A stretch of DNA of 17,467 bases. It comes from a virus (lineage: Duplodnaviria; Heunggongvirae; Uroviricota; Caudoviricetes). Below are positions 6,634 to 17,467 of this stretch, in pieces. The notes under the pieces are model-generated. The model was not told where the DNA came from and did not search any database. It saw only the letters and a list, made by a program, of their open reading frames with translations. Made by a program: the position numbers and the translations under genes. The stretch lies in the IMG/VR virus record IMGVR_UViG_2585427741_000008, one strand, 5' to 3'. Each line of letters opens with the position of its first letter. Positions within the stretch are counted from its first letter, which is position 1.

Positions 6634-7128
6634 TCAGATTGTCAGAAACGGGTTAGTGGCTTTCTTCTTCCCCGCCAGGCCAATCAGACGCTGGCGGCTG
6701 CTGGGGTCGAGTCCGAGCATTGCCCCCGTGCTGCTCATCTCGGACTCCTGTTCTTTTTTGGCGGTCAGCTCCGGATTTTTGACCATGCCACCCATTGCAC
6801 CGGTGATGGTGTTACCCTGTCTGGCAATATTTTTCACGGCACGTCGCCAGAACTCATAGGCCACACACCACCGCTCAAGTACCGCCAGGTCAGTCACGCA
6901 CAGCAGGCCCTGACCGCAGAGTTCTTTGGTTGTCAGTTGCCACATGATCGTGGCGAGAGGGAGATCTTCTTCAGCGAACCACTCCGGTGGCTCAACACCT
7001 TTGATGGGCGTAAAAACAGGTTCATCTTTATTCAGGGCTCGCTTGCCGGGGTTTCCGGCCAGCGCCTTGCGCGCCGTTGGCTTGGGGCGACGCCCGGAAC
7101 GCCCCGCCGTTCCAGCCATATGCGGCAC
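6634..7128 (-). CDS. Terminase small subunit (P27-family-like)
   Basis: 164-aa ORF with a basic N-terminus ([29 protein letters not shown]) typical of P27-family small terminases. Immediately upstream of terL. Confidence 0.8.
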
Positions 7129-7709: not shown

Positions 7710-8567
7710 GTGTTAAATCCTATCAGCTTATTTTCAGTAAAATTAACCTGCTACCACAATGATAGAGAAATTATGGTAGGAACAGGTTTTCTTTATAGCC
7801 ATGAAGATTATAGAGACCCAATCTTAATAACAAACTACCATGTCCTAACCTGTAGAGAACCCAAAAACCCAGCATCCTTAATGAACAATATAGGATCCTC
7901 ACCAAATAAAATAAAATGTCACATTTGGGCTCCGAATGGCTCGTCCTGCCATACATTTTATATCAATATTGATGAACACACGGAATGGTTAGAACATCCC
8001 TTAAGGGCTAATGGGGTGGATATTGTTGGCATTCCCATAATCTTTACTAGCGATGTAGGCTATACAACACAAAACGATATTAACAACACCGACACAATTC
8101 CACTTCACGTTGCATCAGACTTATCAATCGTGGGTTATCCCCTTGGTTTATCTGTAAATGAGCATTTACCAATTTGGAAAAATGGAGTGATTGCCAGTGA
8201 ACCAGACGTTAAAATATCCGGCCTTGACTATTTCTATATTGATGCAACAACCAAGGAAGGCATGTCTGGATCTCCTGTATTTTCTCATGAATATACTACT
8301 CAAATTATAGTTTCACCAGAAGTGCATGCTTTATATCAGCGTCGCCAGCGAGGCGAACTAGATGCTTTGCAATTTATCTCTTCAATACCATCTGAGTCAC
8401 TAAACAACACCATTCAAGTAAAAAAATTCAAATTAATTGGTATTTATTCTGGACGAGTGACAGTAGGAACATCTATGCCAGATATAGGTATAGTTTGGAA
8501 GCTTAGTCTAATTGAGGAAATGCTTTCGTCCAAAAATTTGGTCAAATCAGAATATCCACCTTACTAA
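7710..8567 (+). CDS. Trypsin-like (S1/Trypsin_2-type) serine protease with an ~85-aa C-terminal extension of unknown function; AT-rich cargo gene
   Basis: 285-aa ORF with a GTG start at 7710 preceded by AGGAGG (7700-7705). Putative triad His44 (GTGFLYS...ILITNYHVL, codon 7839-7841), Asp104 (NGVDIVGI) and Ser186 (GMSGSPVF, codon 8265-8267). About 33% GC in a sampled 60-nt stretch versus about 47% in a sampled flank. Opposite strand to all flanking phage genes. Confidence 0.7.
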   Translation: MLNPISLFSVKLTCYHNDREIMVGTGFLYSHEDYRDPILITNYHVLTCREPKNPASLMNNIGSSPNKIKCHIWAPNGSSCHTFYINIDEHTEWLEHPLRANGVDIVGIPIIFTSDVGYTTQNDINNTDTIPLHVASDLSIVGYPLGLSVNEHLPIWKNGVIASEPDVKISGLDYFYIDATTKEGMSGSPVFSHEYTTQIIVSPEVHALYQRRQRGELDALQFISSIPSESLNNTIQVKKFKLIGIYSGRVTVGTSMPDIGIVWKLSLIEEMLSSKNLVKSEYPPY

Positions 8568-10204: not shown

Positions 10205-11995
10205 ATGAGCACAGAATTAAAACTAAAGAAAATTATGGCATCGTCTAAAATTGAGCCATTTATTAGACATATTCGTTTTCCTTTTTTTAAAAACCTTGCA
10301 GAGGGTAGCAAGATTGATTTTGAGTATCCAATTACAGCATTAGTTGGTCAAAACGGAACCAATAAAAGTTCTGTTTTAAGAGCCCTATTCGGTTCTCCAA
10401 ACAACTATTCTCTGGGTAGCTTATGGTTTTCTACAGATGTAGATGAGATTAAAGATGGTGGTCGTTCTAGATTTATTTATGGATATTATGACAAAGCTAC
10501 TGATTCAATTGTTGAAGTAATTAAAACTCGAATCTCTAAAGAAAATGATCCTGATTACTGGGAACCATCCAGACCATTAAAATCCGACAACATGGCTCCA
10601 ATGCCTAGTACAAAAATCTCAACCAATCAACTAAGGACTAGGTGGAAAGCTATTGACAAAAATGTAATATATTTAGATTTCAGAGCAACTATCAGTGCAT
10701 TTGATAAGTTCTTTTATCACTCTGATTTTCATACATACCCTAAGAAAGATTATCTTAGAAAACGCAGTCAGATGCTAAAAGACATTATAGATAACGATCT
10801 TAAAAAATATCAACCTCATAAAGGAAAAAAAGACAAGCTATTTGTTAACACTTTATTAGAAAAAAGTAAGGTAGAGGCAATCAGCAAGATTTTAGGTCGC
10901 AAATACACAAGCATCCGCCTTATTGAACATAGCTTATTCACTAATGACAAAGCTCCCACAATTATTCTTCAATCAGAAAACTTAAAATATTCTGAAGCTT
11001 TCGCAGGCAGTGGGGAATTTGCTGTATCTATATTAGTGCATAAACTAATGGATAGCCCTGATGCATCTTTAATTCTGCTAGATGAACCTGAAGTATCACT
11101 TCACCCTTCTGCTCAATGTCAATTGATGGAATTTTTATCAGAACAAGCACTTAAAAAGAAACATCAAATTGTCATATCCACACATTCATCAACAATAGTA
11201 AAAGACTTGCCTAAAAATGCCATAAAATTATTCTGTCTGAATGATAAAATAGGAAAGGTTGATGTTCTTCAAAATGTCAGCCCAGAAGAATCTTTCTTTA
11301 TTCTTGGTGAACGCATTGATAAAAGAACCGTTATTGTAGAAGATCGGTTAGCGAAGAGGTTTGTAGAAAAGGCGCTTAAAGCGGGTGGTGAAGCATTATT
11401 AAACTCCTTCGAAGTAAAACATGTTCCTGGAGGAGCGGGAAGTATTCTTCAAACTTTGGCTGTGCCTTTATGTGTTGCCAATGTTAAAAACGTTATTTTC
11501 TTATTAGATGGTGACCAATCGAGAACTGATGATTATCCAACTTCTGATTCCATACCAGAAAATCAAAACACAAACCTTCAAAACATCATAAAAGAAATAA
11601 CCAATCAAGATATAAAATTTAGTTGTGATGGTTCTAATGGCTCATCAAATAACAATCAAAAATACAAAATGCAAAGAAATTTTATCGATTTCATCCACGA
11701 TAAAATTGCTTTTCTTCCTGTTTATACTCCTGAAGCATTTCTTATTGAGAATGTTCATGGTGATTATAAAGAATATAAAGATCAAATCCCCAAAAACATT
11801 CAAGATGCTAAAGAAATCACCAAAGAACTTTGTAAGTTAGACACAGGGTTGGAAAACGTTACCAGTGACGATATCTTTGAAACACAAATCAGAATTCTTA
11901 ATAAAATACCAAATAATCATGAAGTGTTAACAAAAACTCGAGAGTTGCTGCAAATCTTTTTAGATAATGATACTATCAGACCAAGAGTGAGGTAG
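10205..11995 (+). CDS. ABC-type (AAA_15/AAA_21-like) ATPase with C-terminal TOPRIM-like putative nuclease domain (OLD/PARIS-like architecture)
   Basis: 596-aa ORF. P-loop-like ITALVGQNGTNKSSVL (aa 43-58, nt 10346-10369), Walker B/D-loop ASLILLDEPEVSLHPSAQ (D293 E294, nt 11081-11086), and in the C-terminal half an acidic pair VIVEDR (E379) plus a DxD motif FLLDGDQ (D435-G-D437, nt 11507-11515), as expected for a TOPRIM fold. AT-rich; stop is 3 nt before the methyltransferase start. Confidence 0.6.
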   Translation: MSTELKLKKIMASSKIEPFIRHIRFPFFKNLAEGSKIDFEYPITALVGQNGTNKSSVLRALFGSPNNYSLGSLWFSTDVDEIKDGGRSRFIYGYYDKATDSIVEVIKTRISKENDPDYWEPSRPLKSDNMAPMPSTKISTNQLRTRWKAIDKNVIYLDFRATISAFDKFFYHSDFHTYPKKDYLRKRSQMLKDIIDNDLKKYQPHKGKKDKLFVNTLLEKSKVEAISKILGRKYTSIRLIEHSLFTNDKAPTIILQSENLKYSEAFAGSGEFAVSILVHKLMDSPDASLILLDEPEVSLHPSAQCQLMEFLSEQALKKKHQIVISTHSSTIVKDLPKNAIKLFCLNDKIGKVDVLQNVSPEESFFILGERIDKRTVIVEDRLAKRFVEKALKAGGEALLNSFEVKHVPGGAGSILQTLAVPLCVANVKNVIFLLDGDQSRTDDYPTSDSIPENQNTNLQNIIKEITNQDIKFSCDGSNGSSNNNQKYKMQRNFIDFIHDKIAFLPVYTPEAFLIENVHGDYKEYKDQIPKNIQDAKEITKELCKLDTGLENVTSDDIFETQIRILNKIPNNHEVLTKTRELLQIFLDNDTIRPRVR

Positions 11996-11998
11996 ATA

Positions 11999-13039
11999 AT
12001 GGCTAAAAAGATACACGTTTACGATTTCTTTTCCGGCTGCGGCGGAACCAGTGTAGGCCTAAAAGCGGTGGGAATGGAAATTATTTTCGGTTTAGATATT
12101 GATCTAGACTCCGCTAACACCTTTAAAATGAATAATCCATTTGCACATTTTATCAATGGTGATATCAAAGATACACACGTTGAGGAAATTAAGCATCTGG
12201 TTTGTGCGTCAACACAAAGCAAAGCTCTAACCCTATTTTGTGGTTGTGCTCCATGTCAACCATTCTCGAAACAAAATAAAATACGGAACGAGGATGATCC
12301 GAGAAAAGATCTGCTTACTGAGTTTGCACGGTTTGTCTCTTATTATACGCCAGACTTTGTACTGGTAGAGAATGTACCAGGAATCCAAAATGTCGATATT
12401 AACAATGGAAATTTCCAGAAATTTCTTGAGGTTTTAGCACATCATAACTACAACGTTGATTTTGGTGTGATTCCTGCGTTGTGGTTCGGGGTTCCTCAAA
12501 CACGTGAACGTTTTGTTTTACTGGCGTCAAAACACACGAATATTAAGCTTCCATCACAAACTCATGATGGATTAAAAACTCCGTATGCAACTGTCAGAGA
12601 CTGGATCGGCGGATTACCTCCTATTGCTGCCGGTGAAACTCATAAAGATGTTATGGATCATACAGCAGCCAAACTATCTGATCTAAATATTAAACGTATT
12701 AAAGCGACTCCTGAAGGAAAAGGTAGAGAATCTTGGCCTGAAGAACTTATACTAAAATGCCATAAAAAATATAAAGGGCATACTGATGTTTATGGACGGC
12801 TTTCTTGGGACAAACCAGCAAGTGGATTAACAACTAGATGTATAAGCTATTCGAATGGACGTTTCGGACATCCAGAGCAAGATAGGGCTATTTCTGTTAG
12901 AGAGGCTGCGTTATTACAGACTTTCCCATTAGACTATTCCTTCACAGGCTCTTTAGTCTCGAAAGCCAAACAGATAGGGAATGCAGTCCCTCCCAAGATG
13001 GCTGAAGCTCTTGGAAGGGCTATCATCGCATCACTTTAA
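11999..13039 (+). CDS. DNA (cytosine-5)-methyltransferase
   Basis: 346-aa ORF with the canonical m5C-MTase motif order: I FSGCGG (nt 12029-12046), IV GCAPCQPFS (PCQ at 12251-12259), VI LVENVPGI (ENV at 12367-12375), VIII QTRERFVL (12497-12511) and X IGNAVPP near the C-terminus, with a variable region between VIII and X. Confidence 0.9.
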   Translation: MAKKIHVYDFFSGCGGTSVGLKAVGMEIIFGLDIDLDSANTFKMNNPFAHFINGDIKDTHVEEIKHLVCASTQSKALTLFCGCAPCQPFSKQNKIRNEDDPRKDLLTEFARFVSYYTPDFVLVENVPGIQNVDINNGNFQKFLEVLAHHNYNVDFGVIPALWFGVPQTRERFVLLASKHTNIKLPSQTHDGLKTPYATVRDWIGGLPPIAAGETHKDVMDHTAAKLSDLNIKRIKATPEGKGRESWPEELILKCHKKYKGHTDVYGRLSWDKPASGLTTRCISYSNGRFGHPEQDRAISVREAALLQTFPLDYSFTGSLVSKAKQIGNAVPPKMAEALGRAIIASL

Positions 13040-14417: not shown

Positions 14418-15215
14418 TCAATGTACGGTATCGAGCAGCTTTAACAGCTCAGGGAATCGGGATTCGAAGAAATGCGGCTGCGTCTCGCGCGGATTTGCGG
14501 GACTGGTGATGTTCTTGCCGAACATGCAGCCTTTCGCTGTCAGTGACCAGAATTTTTTGATGTTGTTAATCGCGGTACGGCTGTATCGTTCGCGCTGCTC
14601 GACGATCCCCAGCTTCACCATCTGGTGATATGCCTGATTAGCTGTCAGGCGGATACCATACTGCTTCAGCAATGCACTCAGTGACAGCGTGGGGCGGCTT
14701 GAGCCATCAGGCGCGTCAGCAGGAGCATCAATGGCATAGCGCGGTGCCAGATTCGGTAAGCCAACAGCCTCCTGGAGTTTCTGACAGGCCCCAAGCACTG
14801 AAGAGTTAGACAGGTTTAACTCCCTGCGCATAAAGTCCAGCAGAATCACTCCAGCCTGCATCTTGTCAGCAGCCTGCCCGGATAATTTTTCCGGTGCGCT
14901 GGTTACCATGTCGAAAGTACGGATCACCTTAAGATGGAATGACGGGCTGATCCACATTGCATAGGCATACACCAGTTCTTTGCAGACATACGTCCCCTGG
15001 TTATTTCCGCCACGAATAACGTTAACTGGCTCTATATTGACCGAGTTGCAAATCTGCAACTCGCTTATTAAACGTTCAGTTTGCTCATTGCGGAGCCAGA
15101 ATGCAGGCTTATGCTTATCCAGAGAACCGGCAGCCCTGTGCAGATCGTTCAGGCTGTAACGCCCAAAAGCATCACGACGAACTTCAATACCATCAATGAC
15201 CATCAGATTATTCAT
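14418..15215 (-). CDS. KilA-N domain protein (antirepressor-like)
   Basis: 265-aa ORF whose N-terminus (MNNLMVIDGIEVRRDAFGRYSLNDLHRAAG...GTYVCKELVYAYAMWISPSFHLKVI) matches the KilA-N DNA-binding domain pattern. Confidence 0.7.
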   Translation of the reverse strand: MNNLMVIDGIEVRRDAFGRYSLNDLHRAAGSLDKHKPAFWLRNEQTERLISELQICNSVNIEPVNVIRGGNNQGTYVCKELVYAYAMWISPSFHLKVIRTFDMVTSAPEKLSGQAADKMQAGVILLDFMRRELNLSNSSVLGACQKLQEAVGLPNLAPRYAIDAPADAPDGSSRPTLSLSALLKQYGIRLTANQAYHQMVKLGIVEQRERYSRTAINNIKKFWSLTAKGCMFGKNITSPANPRETQPHFFESRFPELLKLLDTVH

Positions 15216-15234
15216 ACTTCGTTTCTCCTCTTAA

Positions 15235-15624
15235 TCAGGCGGCTGCACCCGCCGTTTTCTCGTACTTACTGATAGTGATCTCGACCTTCCCTTCCGGGAT
15301 AACCGGTCCCCACTCCACCAGCATTCTTTTCACCTGACTGTCGTCTTCCCACACACCCGCGTGGGTCAGGGCGTCAAACAGCGCCTTGTTATAGTTGTCC
15401 AGATCGCGGATCCGGTTATCCGGAGGAAACAACACGATCTCCACTGAAGCAGGTGCCGACGTTGGTTTTGGCAGACGACGTAACTGCTCAACTATTGCTG
15501 CACACGCCGCGCTCTGAAATTTTCGCCCCGCCGCGCTTATCAGGCTCTTACCAGCAAATGCCCCTTTGTTGGGGTGTCGCCAGTACGTGTTCACGCTGGG
15601 CGGGAAAGGAAGGATCAACTTCAT
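15235..15624 (-). CDS. rusA: Holliday junction resolvase RusA
   Basis: 129-aa ORF with RusA hallmarks: LPFPPSVNTYW N-terminus, RDLDNYNKALFDALTHAGVWEDDSQV catalytic region, and C-terminal EITISKYE. Confidence 0.85.
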   Translation of the reverse strand: MKLILPFPPSVNTYWRHPNKGAFAGKSLISAAGRKFQSAACAAIVEQLRRLPKPTSAPASVEIVLFPPDNRIRDLDNYNKALFDALTHAGVWEDDSQVKRMLVEWGPVIPEGKVEITISKYEKTAGAAA

Positions 15625-15980
15625 ACTTTCAGGCCCCTCTCATGTAACCAGTGGGCTGCACGCAGCCTGGCGTTTTCCTCACCGGCAAGCAGTGAGCGGA
15701 TAATCCCGACCGCCTCGCTGTCGTCGTCCTTCACCGCGGTATGAAGCGTTATCCCCCGGGCCACGCCACGCTTTATCGTGATGACGCCTTTTTTCTCCAG
15801 TGCGCGAAGATGCTCCACCGCTGCATTCACCGAACGATATCCCAGCATGGTTGCCACCTCCTGATTGGTTGGCGGGAAGCCACGTTCTTTCTGGTAAGAA
15901 ATCAGCATATCCAGCACCTGCTGCTGGCATTGAGTTAACGTCGTCATTACGCCCCCACGTAATTCCCTGACAGATACCAC
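15621..15980 (-). CDS. Winged-helix DNA-binding protein (LexA N-terminal-domain-like)
   Basis: 119-aa ORF. LTQCQQQVLDMLISYQKERGFPPTNQEVATMLGYRSVNAAVEHLRALEKKGVI resembles the LexA-type winged HTH. Start overlaps the RusA gene stop by 4 nt. Confidence 0.5.
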   Translation of the reverse strand: MVSVRELRGGVMTTLTQCQQQVLDMLISYQKERGFPPTNQEVATMLGYRSVNAAVEHLRALEKKGVITIKRGVARGITLHTAVKDDDSEAVGIIRSLLAGEENARLRAAHWLHERGLKV

Positions 15981-16441
15981 TCATCACTCGATACAGCGCG
16001 CTTGCTGCTTTTCCGTAAACACTGCTCACGACGCGCCAGAAAATTGTTTCGTTCTGGCTGGGAATGGCTTTCACGGAATGCCGCCATCCACACCGTTGCA
16101 GCACGACGGTATAAGCCCCTGGACTCCAGTTCTTCAGCCTGGCGGGTCAGGCACAAAATCTCCCGCGGGTCGTTAGTGCCGACATAGAAATTGCGCACAG
16201 GTCTGGTTTCACGAACTGGTTGCGGTTCCGCCTCCTGCGCTCTCTCAGTCAGGCGCGGGAAATGTCTGCGTGTATCCCCTTCACAACGGTGAGCCACACG
16301 ACCACTCTGACGTAACTTGCTTGCTGACTGCAGAACGCGCTGCCGTGAGTAACCAGCAAAAGCATCCGCAATGTCTCCGGAAGTACACCCCGGATGGGCT
16401 TCAATGTATTTCTGAACTTCATTCAAAAGACTCATGATCAC
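15947..16441 (-). CDS. Hypothetical phage regulatory protein (possible PerC-like C-terminal region)
   Basis: 164-aa ORF with an N-terminal HTH-like segment and a C-terminal LESRGLYRRAATVWMAAF resembling the PerC-family signature. Weak call from memory. Confidence 0.4.
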   Translation of the reverse strand: MIMSLLNEVQKYIEAHPGCTSGDIADAFAGYSRQRVLQSASKLRQSGRVAHRCEGDTRRHFPRLTERAQEAEPQPVRETRPVRNFYVGTNDPREILCLTRQAEELESRGLYRRAATVWMAAFRESHSQPERNNFLARREQCLRKSSKRAVSSDEWYLSGNYVGA

Positions 16442-17379
16442 CCCCTGAATCCTGCCGGGATCTGGCTGTAGTCCACGTTGTCGTAACTGGCTTTGAAGTA
16501 CGGGTCTTCGCGTTTTTCGGTGTACGTGCTGACGGACGGCGATAAGCGCAGGGAAAGCTCATCCCATTTTTCCCGCAGCTTCGACGGGCTGAGCACGTTA
16601 CGGCACCAGAACGGATCGCGGCTGACGCGGCTGTACATCTCGCAGATTTGTTTGTGAGTACGACCATCCTGCACACACATCAGGCGAATTTCGTTTGCCC
16701 AGGCTGTCCAGTTCGGTTCTTTGGGACGAACCACCTCGCCGTCACATTCGGCAGCCTGCTCGTACAGGGCGATGATTTTTTTCCAGAACCACTGTGCGCA
16801 GGTCAAATCATCCTGCGTTCCCCACTGGCGCTTTTTAGGGCTGAATACAACCGCATCAGGATGGCGAGTTAAAAAATCCTGTTCATCCGTCTGCGTGTCC
16901 GGTTGCGAAGCGTCCGGACGAGAAGGTTTTTTATCTGACGGATCATGTTTTGATTTTACTGACGGATCCCCGCCAGATTCTGACGGGTGAAAACCCGCTT
17001 TTTTGCCAGATTTCGACGCATCAAATTTTGACGGGTCAGATTTTGATGCGTCAGATTTTGACGGGTCAGAATCTGACAGTTGAGAAAATGCCGCTGCCTG
17101 AAGCTTCGCAACGTTAAGCTGATAAACATTCGACGCATTGCGGTTACCCTGGCGACGCGCCTTACGCGTTAACCAGCCTTCTGCTTCCAGCCGTGCGATA
17201 GCCGTTCTGACGGTGCTCATCCCCGCGCCAATCTGGCGGGCAATGGTTTCAATTGATGGCCAGCACACACCTTCGTCATTACTGAAATCAGCCAGGCGGG
17301 CCATAATTGCCACGCTGGATAACTTCATGCCTGACGCAGCGCAACCATCCCATACATAGCCGGTTAATTTAGTGCTCAT
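16438..17379 (-). CDS. Replication initiation protein (O-like: N-terminal wHTH, repeat-encoded linker, C-terminal domain)
   Basis: 313-aa ORF with AGAGGT 6 nt upstream of the ATG. N-terminal HTH (LSSVAIMARLADFSNDEGVCWPSIETIARQIGAGMSTVRTAIARLEAEGWL), a low-complexity SDPSK/SDASK pentapeptide-repeat linker, and a C-terminal domain. Lies at the head of the early region upstream of RusA. Confidence 0.55.
   Translation of the reverse strand: MSTKLTGYVWDGCAASGMKLSSVAIMARLADFSNDEGVCWPSIETIARQIGAGMSTVRTAIARLEAEGWLTRKARRQGNRNASNVYQLNVAKLQAAAFSQLSDSDPSKSDASKSDPSKFDASKSGKKAGFHPSESGGDPSVKSKHDPSDKKPSRPDASQPDTQTDEQDFLTRHPDAVVFSPKKRQWGTQDDLTCAQWFWKKIIALYEQAAECDGEVVRPKEPNWTAWANEIRLMCVQDGRTHKQICEMYSRVSRDPFWCRNVLSPSKLREKWDELSLRLSPSVSTYTEKREDPYFKASYDNVDYSQIPAGFRG
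17007..17081. repeat. Five tandem 15-bp direct repeats (iteron-like), with degenerate copies upstream to about 16934
   Basis: Read directly: CAGATTTCGACGCAT, CAAATTTTGACGGGT, CAGATTTTGATGCGT, CAGATTTTGACGGGT, CAGAATCTGACAGTT (17007-17081). Related CTGACGGATC/CTGACGGGTG copies at about 16934-16990. They lie inside the replication gene and encode the pentapeptide repeats. Confidence 0.7.
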
Positions 17380-17385
17380 GACCGA

Positions 17386-17467
17386 CCTCTATTTCCCTGA
17401 ATTTACGACGAAACTGTTCGAGCGGGCTGAAGCACTCATGCTCATAGCCTTCGCGGAGGTAGATAAC
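17386..17467 (-). CDS. C-terminal end of an upstream early-region ORF (unknown function), partial
   Basis: Open minus-strand frame from the window edge to a TAG at 17386-17388 (…LSTSAKAMSMSASARSNSFVVNSGK*). Too short to assign. Confidence 0.25.

Follow-up and report, generated by a model that had tools for sequence, protein, structure and literature searches.

What does a tandem array of 15-bp repeats do in the middle of a phage replication gene: does it mark the origin from which the prophage replicates, or is it only the coding sequence of a slippage-prone peptide linker? The question is raised by a 17,467-nucleotide stretch of caudoviral DNA (IMG/VR record IMGVR_UViG_2585427741_000008; the whole stretch is called the window below), in which the gene for an O-like replication initiator of 313 amino acids (aa) occupies positions 16438 to 17379 on the minus strand in the open reading frame (ORF) list and contains the whole repeat element. 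The initial annotation, made from the sequence alone, had offered both answers. We consider it likely that the element at 16927-17077 is the replication origin of the prophage, built in the style of phage lambda and embedded in the linker-coding part of the initiator gene. This reading rests on the position and polarity of the element, which match those of ori-lambda relative to a homologous C-terminal domain, as well as on dyad symmetry, constraint at the DNA level, independence from the reading frame, modular co-inheritance with a DNA-binding domain, and the restriction of the sites to the gene itself.

Anatomy of the repeat element

Domain assignments, based on Pfam, PHROG, and BLAST, place the repeats in a low-complexity linker between two domains of the initiator, which matches PHROG 391 ("replication initiation O-like") with an E value of 6e-135. 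The N-terminal winged-helix DNA-binding domain (aa 1-97; 17089-17379, minus strand) carries a helix-turn-helix (HTH) of the Pfam HTH_36 type, with the match covering aa 23-70 (17170-17313; E = 4e-11); weaker Pfam matches of the N terminus are to GntR, PaaX, MarR, DnaD_N, and RepC_N, and there are weak MarR-family matches in the PDB. The C-terminal domain (aa 166-277; 16549-16884, minus strand) is homologous to that of lambda O, being 39% identical in tblastn to the O genes of lambda and many lambdoid phages (E = 2e-17) and giving an E value of 1e-25 against a lambda-type O in pairwise BLASTP. Phage_rep_O (PF04492), which a lambda-type O matches at 6e-36, is not matched by the initiator in Pfam. 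The linker (aa 98-167, including the repeats) consists of 83% polar or disorder-promoting and 7% hydrophobic residues. The HTH_36 and PHROG 391 matches thus bear out the first-annotated location of the array, between an N-terminal HTH and the C-terminal domain of an O-like protein, and the N-terminal winged helix is the presumed reader of the repeats.

On the plus strand, the five contiguous 15-bp units annotated at 17007-17081 are indeed present (CAGATTTCGACGCAT, CAAATTTTGACGGGT, CAGATTTTGATGCGT, CAGATTTTGACGGGT, and CAGAATCTGACAGTT), as are the degenerate CTGACGG(A/G)T copies upstream of them, at 16935-16943, 16959-16967, and 16979-16987. Tandem Repeats Finder reports the array (17007-17070) both with a period of 15 (4.3 copies, 81% matches, score 86) and with a period of 30 (2.1 copies, 88% matches, score 100). 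Translation of the minus-strand ORF confirms that the array encodes the pentapeptide-repeat linker (..SDSDPSKSDASKSDPSKFDASKSG..) that had been noted. This SDxSK repeat is not a pentapeptide-repeat protein of the Pfam type, with the Pentapeptide family (A(D/N)LXX beta-helix) giving no Pfam match in the initiator; its period of five residues simply follows from the 15-bp period of the DNA.

When the register is shifted, a near-palindrome of 13 bp, GTCARAWTCTGAC on the sense strand of the gene, is seen within every 15-bp unit. Five of these abut, 15 bp centre to centre (17065-17077, 17050-17062, 17035-17047, 17020-17032, and 17005-17017), forming a tandem array at 17005-17077 that encodes SDSDP SKSDA SKSDP SKFDA SKSG. 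Unit 1, GTCAGATTCTGAC, is perfectly palindromic. A sixth site (16972-16984; sense GTCAGAATCTGGC) follows 33 bp beyond the fifth, a distance from the last array unit that is seen directly in the sequences of the window and of phage phiP27. Among relatives this site is nearly invariant, occurring as TCAGAATCTGG or as the perfect palindrome CCAGAATCTGG, and it is separated from the array by a variable spacer (16985-17004; sense AAAAAAGCGGGTTTTCACCC), the 5' part of which is poorly conserved. A terminator-like hairpin, CGGGTGAAAACCCG, with a T-run behind it (16984-17007, plus strand) also lies in the spacer region, antisense to the gene; its stem (16984-16997) is not conserved among relatives.

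Searching with GTCARAWTCTGAC at up to two mismatches gives 11 strand-matches (1.2 expected), which correspond to six sites that all fall within 16972-17077, and none of 200 dinucleotide-preserving shuffles reached 11. No site of this type and stringency occurs elsewhere in the 17.5-kb window. In the protein, the sites correspond to codons 102-136, between the HTH (aa 23-70) and the start of the C-terminal homology at aa 166.

Constraint acts on the DNA rather than on the peptide

We compared 80 species-level loci encoding this N-terminal domain, 65 of which were put in register, along with 80 near-identical viral contigs; a thinned set comprises 26 loci, filtered to below 80% nucleotide identity. 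Beyond the array, and overlapping site 6, lies a non-repetitive block of 66 bp (16927-16992; sense TTTCACCCGTCAGAATCTGGCGGGGATCCGTCAGTAAAATCAAAACATGATCCGTCAGATAAAAAA) that is conserved at the nucleotide level and includes three half-site-like copies of GAYCCRTCAG (16980-16989, 16959-16968, and 16935-16944). Its tail, a 36-bp stretch at 16927-16962, is 72% A+T against a gene mean of 47% and is a candidate unwinding element. No segment of the gene has a less stable duplex than 16920-16960 (z = 1.7 to 1.8, only the 93rd to 95th percentile of the window), and the adjacent A+T-rich element, which the initial annotation had named as something to look for, may be there in a modest form. The block holds two GATC (Dam) sites 24 bp apart, which we call invariant: at 16941-16944 the codon GAT, followed by CC, is found in 56 of 65 loci, and at 16965-16968 GAT, followed by CCG or CCA, is found in all 65. 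GATC is not enriched over the whole window (74 versus 67 expected), and the two copies in the block stand out only by their invariance. DnaA boxes had no match within 16800-17467, and no IHF consensus was found in the window.

Of the 24 codons that follow the array, 20 have a synonymous-codon diversity near 0, compared with a mean of 0.57 in the N-terminal domain (65 loci). Here the peptide F-D/H-P-S/P-E-S-G-G-D-P-S-V-N/K-S-K-Q-D-P-S-D-K-K-.. is written with the codon consensus TTT GAC CCG TCA GAA TCT GGN GGG GAT CCG TCA GTA AAT TCA AAA CAA GAT CCA TCA GAT AAA AAA. Median diversity is 0.0 in the post-array columns (20 scored of 22) and 0.59 in the 81 N-terminal columns (Mann-Whitney, P = 8e-11 for the 65 loci and P = 4e-11 for the 26 thinned loci). 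The majority base at third positions likewise has a frequency of 0.85 in the block and of 0.56 in the N-terminal domain (0.54 in the thinned set), with third-position conservation inside the N-terminal domain showing no gradient or rise on approaching the junction.

The array itself is constrained in the same sense. Across 320 units from the 65 loci, the serine before lysine is encoded by TCA in 92% of cases (17% elsewhere in the same genes), the serine before aspartate by TCT in 87% (9% elsewhere), and lysine by AAA in 100% (61% elsewhere); these are exactly the codons that the palindrome TCA-RAW-TCT-GA requires. A position weight matrix shows that amino-acid variation is concentrated in the fifth codon, between the DNA sites. 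In addition, the two halves of a site tend to match: an average of 4.4 of 6 pairs are complementary over 385 units from the 65 loci, 40 of 42 occurrences of TTTGA are paired with TCAAA (Fisher, P = 6e-8, not corrected for shared ancestry), and CCA.. is associated with ..TGG (odds ratio 7.5, with the same caveat).

Furthermore, phiP27 (L004) and a Citrobacter prophage (L079) keep the motif TTTGACCCTTCAGAATCTGG in another reading frame, frame 2, which yields VLTLQNLDP or VFTRQNLTP in place of FDPSESGG. No alternative frame across this zone is open in all 65 loci, with the best one open in 31 and the other four in 0 to 2. Frozen synonymous sites, codon fixation, a frameshifted copy, and the lack of a universal alternative frame together indicate that the constraint is on the nucleic acid and not on the peptide.

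The repeat type follows the N-terminal domain

The HTH domain, the array, and the conserved block always occur together, whatever C-terminal domain is attached to them: a lambda-O-like domain in 13 loci, Phg_2220_C in 54 loci, and a third type in phiP27. In these mosaic relatives, the repeat type tracks the N-terminal DNA-binding domain and not the C-terminal domain. The L17 gene of phiP27 has an N-terminal domain that is 60% identical to that of the window, the same motif (TCAGAWTCTGA), and the same spacing plan (15, 15, 33), and it differs in its C-terminal domain, in the DnaC-like loader gene that follows it, and in the one motif copy read in another frame.

The converse combination is found in the "primosomal protein I" gene of Escherichia virus mEp460_4F5 (L005). 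Its C-terminal domain is that of the window, with approximately 97% DNA identity over the last 500 nucleotides, a repeat array sits at the same domain junction, and no loader gene is present; its N-terminal domain, in contrast, is unrelated and has no Pfam match, and its repeats are unrelated as well. That array (L005, 1995-2167) has a period of approximately 23 bp, with five to six CATTGGGCCATTTTGACCCGATG-like copies plus three 12-bp TATTCTCTGTAG units, and is a candidate for a second undescribed origin.

More distant O-like genes with HTH_36 carry dyad-symmetric repeats of their own immediately after the HTH, with three copies of GGGGTGGGGCAGGAGCTGCCC in Min27, three copies of GGTCAAATTCCGACC in a Vibrio phage, and TCAAAATTTGA units plus three copies of GATCCGTCATTA in Klebsiella phage Kp4866-6. 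In the latter phage, the GATCCGTCATTA copies stand in tandem (L174, 1754-1789) in the position of the conserved GATCCGTCAG copies, which suggests that the GATC-containing element may be a functional unit in its own right.

When 75 loci are scanned together with 1.5 kb on either side, 142 matches to the core motif fall in the gene and 1 outside it, which argues against a promoter operator.

Comparison with ori-lambda and other origins

The origin of lambda and of the Shiga toxin (Stx) phages lies midway within O and is made up of iterons together with an A+T-rich tract; the O protein binds as a dimer and becomes longer when iterons are added (PMC7466680). The lambda-type O used here as a control has four internally symmetric iterons of 20 nucleotides, spaced 20 to 24 bp, in codons 117-145, followed by approximately 43 bp of approximately 77% A+T, and the homologous C-terminal part starts approximately 25 codons later, at about aa 171. 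The element of the window shares much of this plan. As in ori-lambda and the six-iteron origins of Stx phages such as 933W, dyad repeats lie in the initiator ORF between the N-terminal DNA-binding and C-terminal domains, extra repeats lengthen the protein, and the N-terminal domain and the repeats form one mosaic module. Order and polarity are identical to those of ori-lambda, with the candidate A+T-rich tract, modest in the window, lying on the C-terminal side of the repeats, and the C-terminal domain that follows is the homologous one.

There are also clear differences from lambda. The N terminus is HTH_36 in the window and Phage_rep_O in lambda; the sites are abutting 15-bp units with a 13-bp palindrome, whereas those of lambda are spaced iterons of approximately 20 bp and unrelated sequence. 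Unlike in lambda, no P gene follows, the A+T-rich part contains the two invariant GATC sites, and conservation of the DNA is highest in the non-repetitive block and not in the array.

Origins embedded in the genes of the initiators that recognize them also occur elsewhere, in P22 gene 18, SPP1 gene 38 (oriL), N15 repA, and repC of repABC, with protein families and repeat sequences that differ from those of the window. Plasmid iteron origins such as those of pSC101, R6K, RK2, and P1 (oriR) have closely spaced initiator-binding repeats beside an A+T-rich region, and GATC is found in the unwinding region of some origins, such as P1 oriR and oriC. Plasmid iterons are asymmetric direct repeats of 17 to 22 bp, which are bound by monomers, usually lie outside the rep ORF, and have DnaA boxes nearby. 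In contrast to a plasmid origin of the Rep_3/RepA kind, the sites of the window are palindromic, intragenic, and repeated every 15 bp, with no DnaA box and no Pfam match to Rep_3; the element is not a plasmid-type iteron origin.

Weighing the proposed origin against the alternatives

DNA-level conservation, dyads, modularity, and a lambda-like position thus all favor the initial proposal that the array is the prophage origin, in which the N-terminal domain would bind the sites and replication would begin there. Several observations weigh against it. The A+T-rich tract is modest in its instability and is interrupted by GATCCGTCAG. The 15-bp spacing sets neighboring sites on nearly opposite faces of the helix, unlike the 20 to 24 bp of lambda. 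A distant HTH_36 gene in Salmonella phage SF6 shows no internal repeats. No helicase or loader gene of the P, DnaC, or DnaB type was found in the window, nor, apart from phiP27 with its different C-terminal domain, as an adjoining gene in the relatives whose neighbors were fetched. The covariation statistics ignore shared ancestry, and slippage homogenises the units of an array. Finally, the literature searched contains no description of this origin or motif and no binding or origin experiment for this family: neither the genome papers on SfIV, SfI, and Sf101 nor those on the Stx "Eru" types mention an origin or repeats in this gene, and 12-nucleotide motif strings had no occurrence in that literature.

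The alternative that survives best is a cis-acting protein-binding element with another use, such as an autoregulatory site or roadblock, or a site for Dam/SeqA or for another phage or host factor. Constraint, dyads, and HTH linkage show a binding site and not what it is used for, and both the pair of invariant GATC sites and the only moderate A+T-rich tract would fit such a role. We nevertheless regard it as distinctly unlikely: the element copies the position and polarity of ori-lambda relative to a homologous C-terminal domain, and initiators with other N termini carry arrays of their own at the same junction, which is the known rule for lambdoid origins. In addition, no sigma-70-like site occurs within 16400-17467, in or near the array, and the upstream promoter region has no copies in the 75 loci. 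An internal promoter or operator was likewise rejected as a candidate, given this absence and the unconserved hairpin at 16984-16997.

Much less probable is that the block is a boundary sequence kept by homologous recombination between phage modules, or that it hides an overlapping gene. The conserved block does lie exactly at the mosaic junction of interchangeable N- and C-terminal modules, and mechanical ORFs are found at 16950-17117 (plus strand) and 16956-17138 (minus strand). Recent exchange would predict a gradual decay of conservation into the N-terminal domain, which we do not observe, and recombination leaves the palindromes, the tandem sites, and the frameshifted copy unexplained; a recombination junction is, moreover, compatible with an origin, as in lambdoid phages. 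The overlapping gene was rejected on the frame counts given above, with the best alternative frame closed in more than half of the 65 loci.

That the array is purely a slippage-prone, low-complexity peptide linker, with DNA that has no cis-acting role, is hardly tenable. Two features favor it, namely the disorder-promoting composition of aa 98-167 and a copy number that shifts in 15-bp steps, from 3 to 7 units among near-identical prophages and from 3 to 8 across species. Copy-number variation, which the initial annotation had expected of such a linker, is therefore real, but the claim that the array is only a linker does not hold. A constraint on the peptide cannot freeze synonymous sites (P of approximately 1e-10), hold one serine to TCA and the other to TCT, preserve a motif in another frame, or make the units palindromic, and amino-acid variation is concentrated in the very codon that lies between the DNA sites. 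The slippage-variable linker is rather a consequence of the 15-bp site period than a competing explanation of it.

An RNA-level element, either an mRNA structure or an antisense transcript, is scarcely credible, because the favorable predicted fold of the mRNA strand (16920-17090; -53.2 kcal/mol, z = -6.0 versus shuffles) follows automatically from an array of palindromes, its pairing partners (units 1 and 6, units 3 and 4) must change as copy number goes from 3 to 8, the stretch with the strongest conservation (16927-16971) stays largely unpaired in it, no promoter-like site is present on either strand, and no Rfam family reaches its threshold, the match to mir-5880 (30.7 bits versus a gathering score of 97) being rejected as spurious.

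Copy number and distribution

Comparing copy number across related prophages, as had been proposed, reveals variation between 3 and 8 units. Near-identical E. coli prophages carry 3, 5, 6, or 7 units; among 78 IMG/VR copies, 72 have 5 units, 1 has 4, 3 have 6, and 2 have 7; and 5 is also the mode across species (65 loci). Repeats missing from functional close relatives, which would have spoken against an origin, were looked for and not seen, with all 65 aligned species-level loci having an array of at least 3 units. The module is present in 2006 of 5426 complete E. coli genomes (more than a third), in hundreds of IMG/VR viral contigs, and in the prophages carried by at least 80 species-level genomes, nearly all from Enterobacterales.

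In E. coli K-12, the yfdO pseudogene of the prophage remnant CPS-53/KpLE1 keeps five units, the conserved block, and the C-terminal domain and has lost the N-terminal HTH, making it a candidate origin without its reader. Two further E. coli chromosomes (L063 and L087) have the first 79 residues of the HTH domain fused to unrelated sequence, presumably e14 ymfN joined to terminase-like sequence.

Plasmids replicating by this gene alone were looked for as indirect proof of an origin, and the outcome was judged too weak: the matches were mostly prophages in large replicons plus two circles of approximately 15 kb. One of these circles, PLSDB OR902851.1 (L176; 15.2 kb), carries mcrA, a hin-type invertase, and an icd fragment and looks like an excised e14 filed as a plasmid. 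The other, NZ_CP148542.1 (L175; 15,977 bp, circular), lacks structural genes and contains nothing but the segment of a lambdoid prophage for immunity, replication, Q, and lysis. Its replication part has a phiP27-like HTH_36 gene and an ATP-binding DnaC-like gene, the O-like gene being absent from the PLSDB gene table, and the circle is either a prophage fragment that replicates autonomously or an artefact of assembly.

Gene context of the initiator

The window is a prophage of the SfII/SfIV type, with capsid, portal, terminase, RusA, KilA-N, and PerC-like genes. Its initiator gene shares approximately 99% identity with replication protein genes from Shigella phages SfII and SfIV, E. coli phage Kati, and several other E. 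coli phages. The genes after the initiator (14418-16441, all on the minus strand) encode a PerC-like activator (15947-16441), a 119-aa protein consisting solely of a LexA DNA-binding domain (15621-15980), RusA (15235-15624), and a KilA-N protein (14418-15215). In many relatives, a Dam-type methylase is encoded one or two genes downstream of the initiator.

Farther away, two plus-strand genes at 10205-13039 run opposite to the surrounding phage genes in the least stable and most A+T-rich part of the window. They encode a 596-aa AAA_15/AAA_21 ATPase (PADLOC HEC-04, 2e-36; ATPase-Toprim/OLD-like, 1e-24) and a 346-aa C-5 cytosine methyltransferase (type II methyltransferase, 4e-91), and the region is probably a defence or moron island. 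A 285-aa trypsin-like peptidase (7710-8567, plus strand; Pfam Trypsin_2; PADLOC candidate PDC-S45, 5e-21) is encoded next to the small-terminase gene (6634-7128, minus strand).

A proposed mechanism and its meaning

The protein ends in ..DYSQIPAGFRG, part of a tail (..SYDNVDYSQIPAGFRG; 16441-16488, minus strand) that is a module common to relatives with an unrelated C-terminal domain. A similar [IV]PxGFR[GS] tail ends at least 31 of 67 species-level homologues (more by eye), lambda-O-like and Phg_2220_C types alike, and its 33 residues are 82% identical in phages that otherwise share nothing with the initiator gene (Ayreon and Stx2c phages). The tail looks like an independent short docking motif.

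If the element is the origin, dimers of the N-terminal winged helix (HTH_36 type) would bind the 13-bp dyads GTCARAWTCTGAC, five abutting and the sixth 33 bp on, and the resulting nucleoprotein complex would destabilise the adjoining invariant 36-bp A+T-rich stretch with its two GATC sites. The lambda-O-like C-terminal domain, possibly together with the PxGFRG tail, would then recruit the helicase-loading machinery, which would be largely host supplied since no P, DnaC, or DnaB gene follows. Each 15-bp site also encodes five linker residues (S-K/E-S-D-x), so that slippage, visible as copy-number variation, would alter the number of sites and the length of the linker together, a coupling that is read from the sequence. 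A more speculative version, rather unlikely as it stands, is a loader-less lambda-type origin, in which a C-terminal domain without P would recruit host loading directly, possibly via the [IV]PxGFR[GS] tail, GATC methylation would gate firing, and slippage would tune sites and linker.

The general picture of lambdoid replication is unchanged by these results, and a specialist would expect the origin to be here. What is added is a base-by-base prediction of the origin, comprising the sites, the conserved block, and the GATC pair, which is directly testable and which concerns a very common module that includes the Shigella serotype-converting phages SfII and SfIV and leaves remnants in K-12 (yfdO and an apparent e14 fusion gene). 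For annotators, the "SDxSK" repeats are not a protein motif. For the biology of these phages, they are a clean natural case of dual coding, with a predicted DNA-binding array dictating the sequence of a protein linker.

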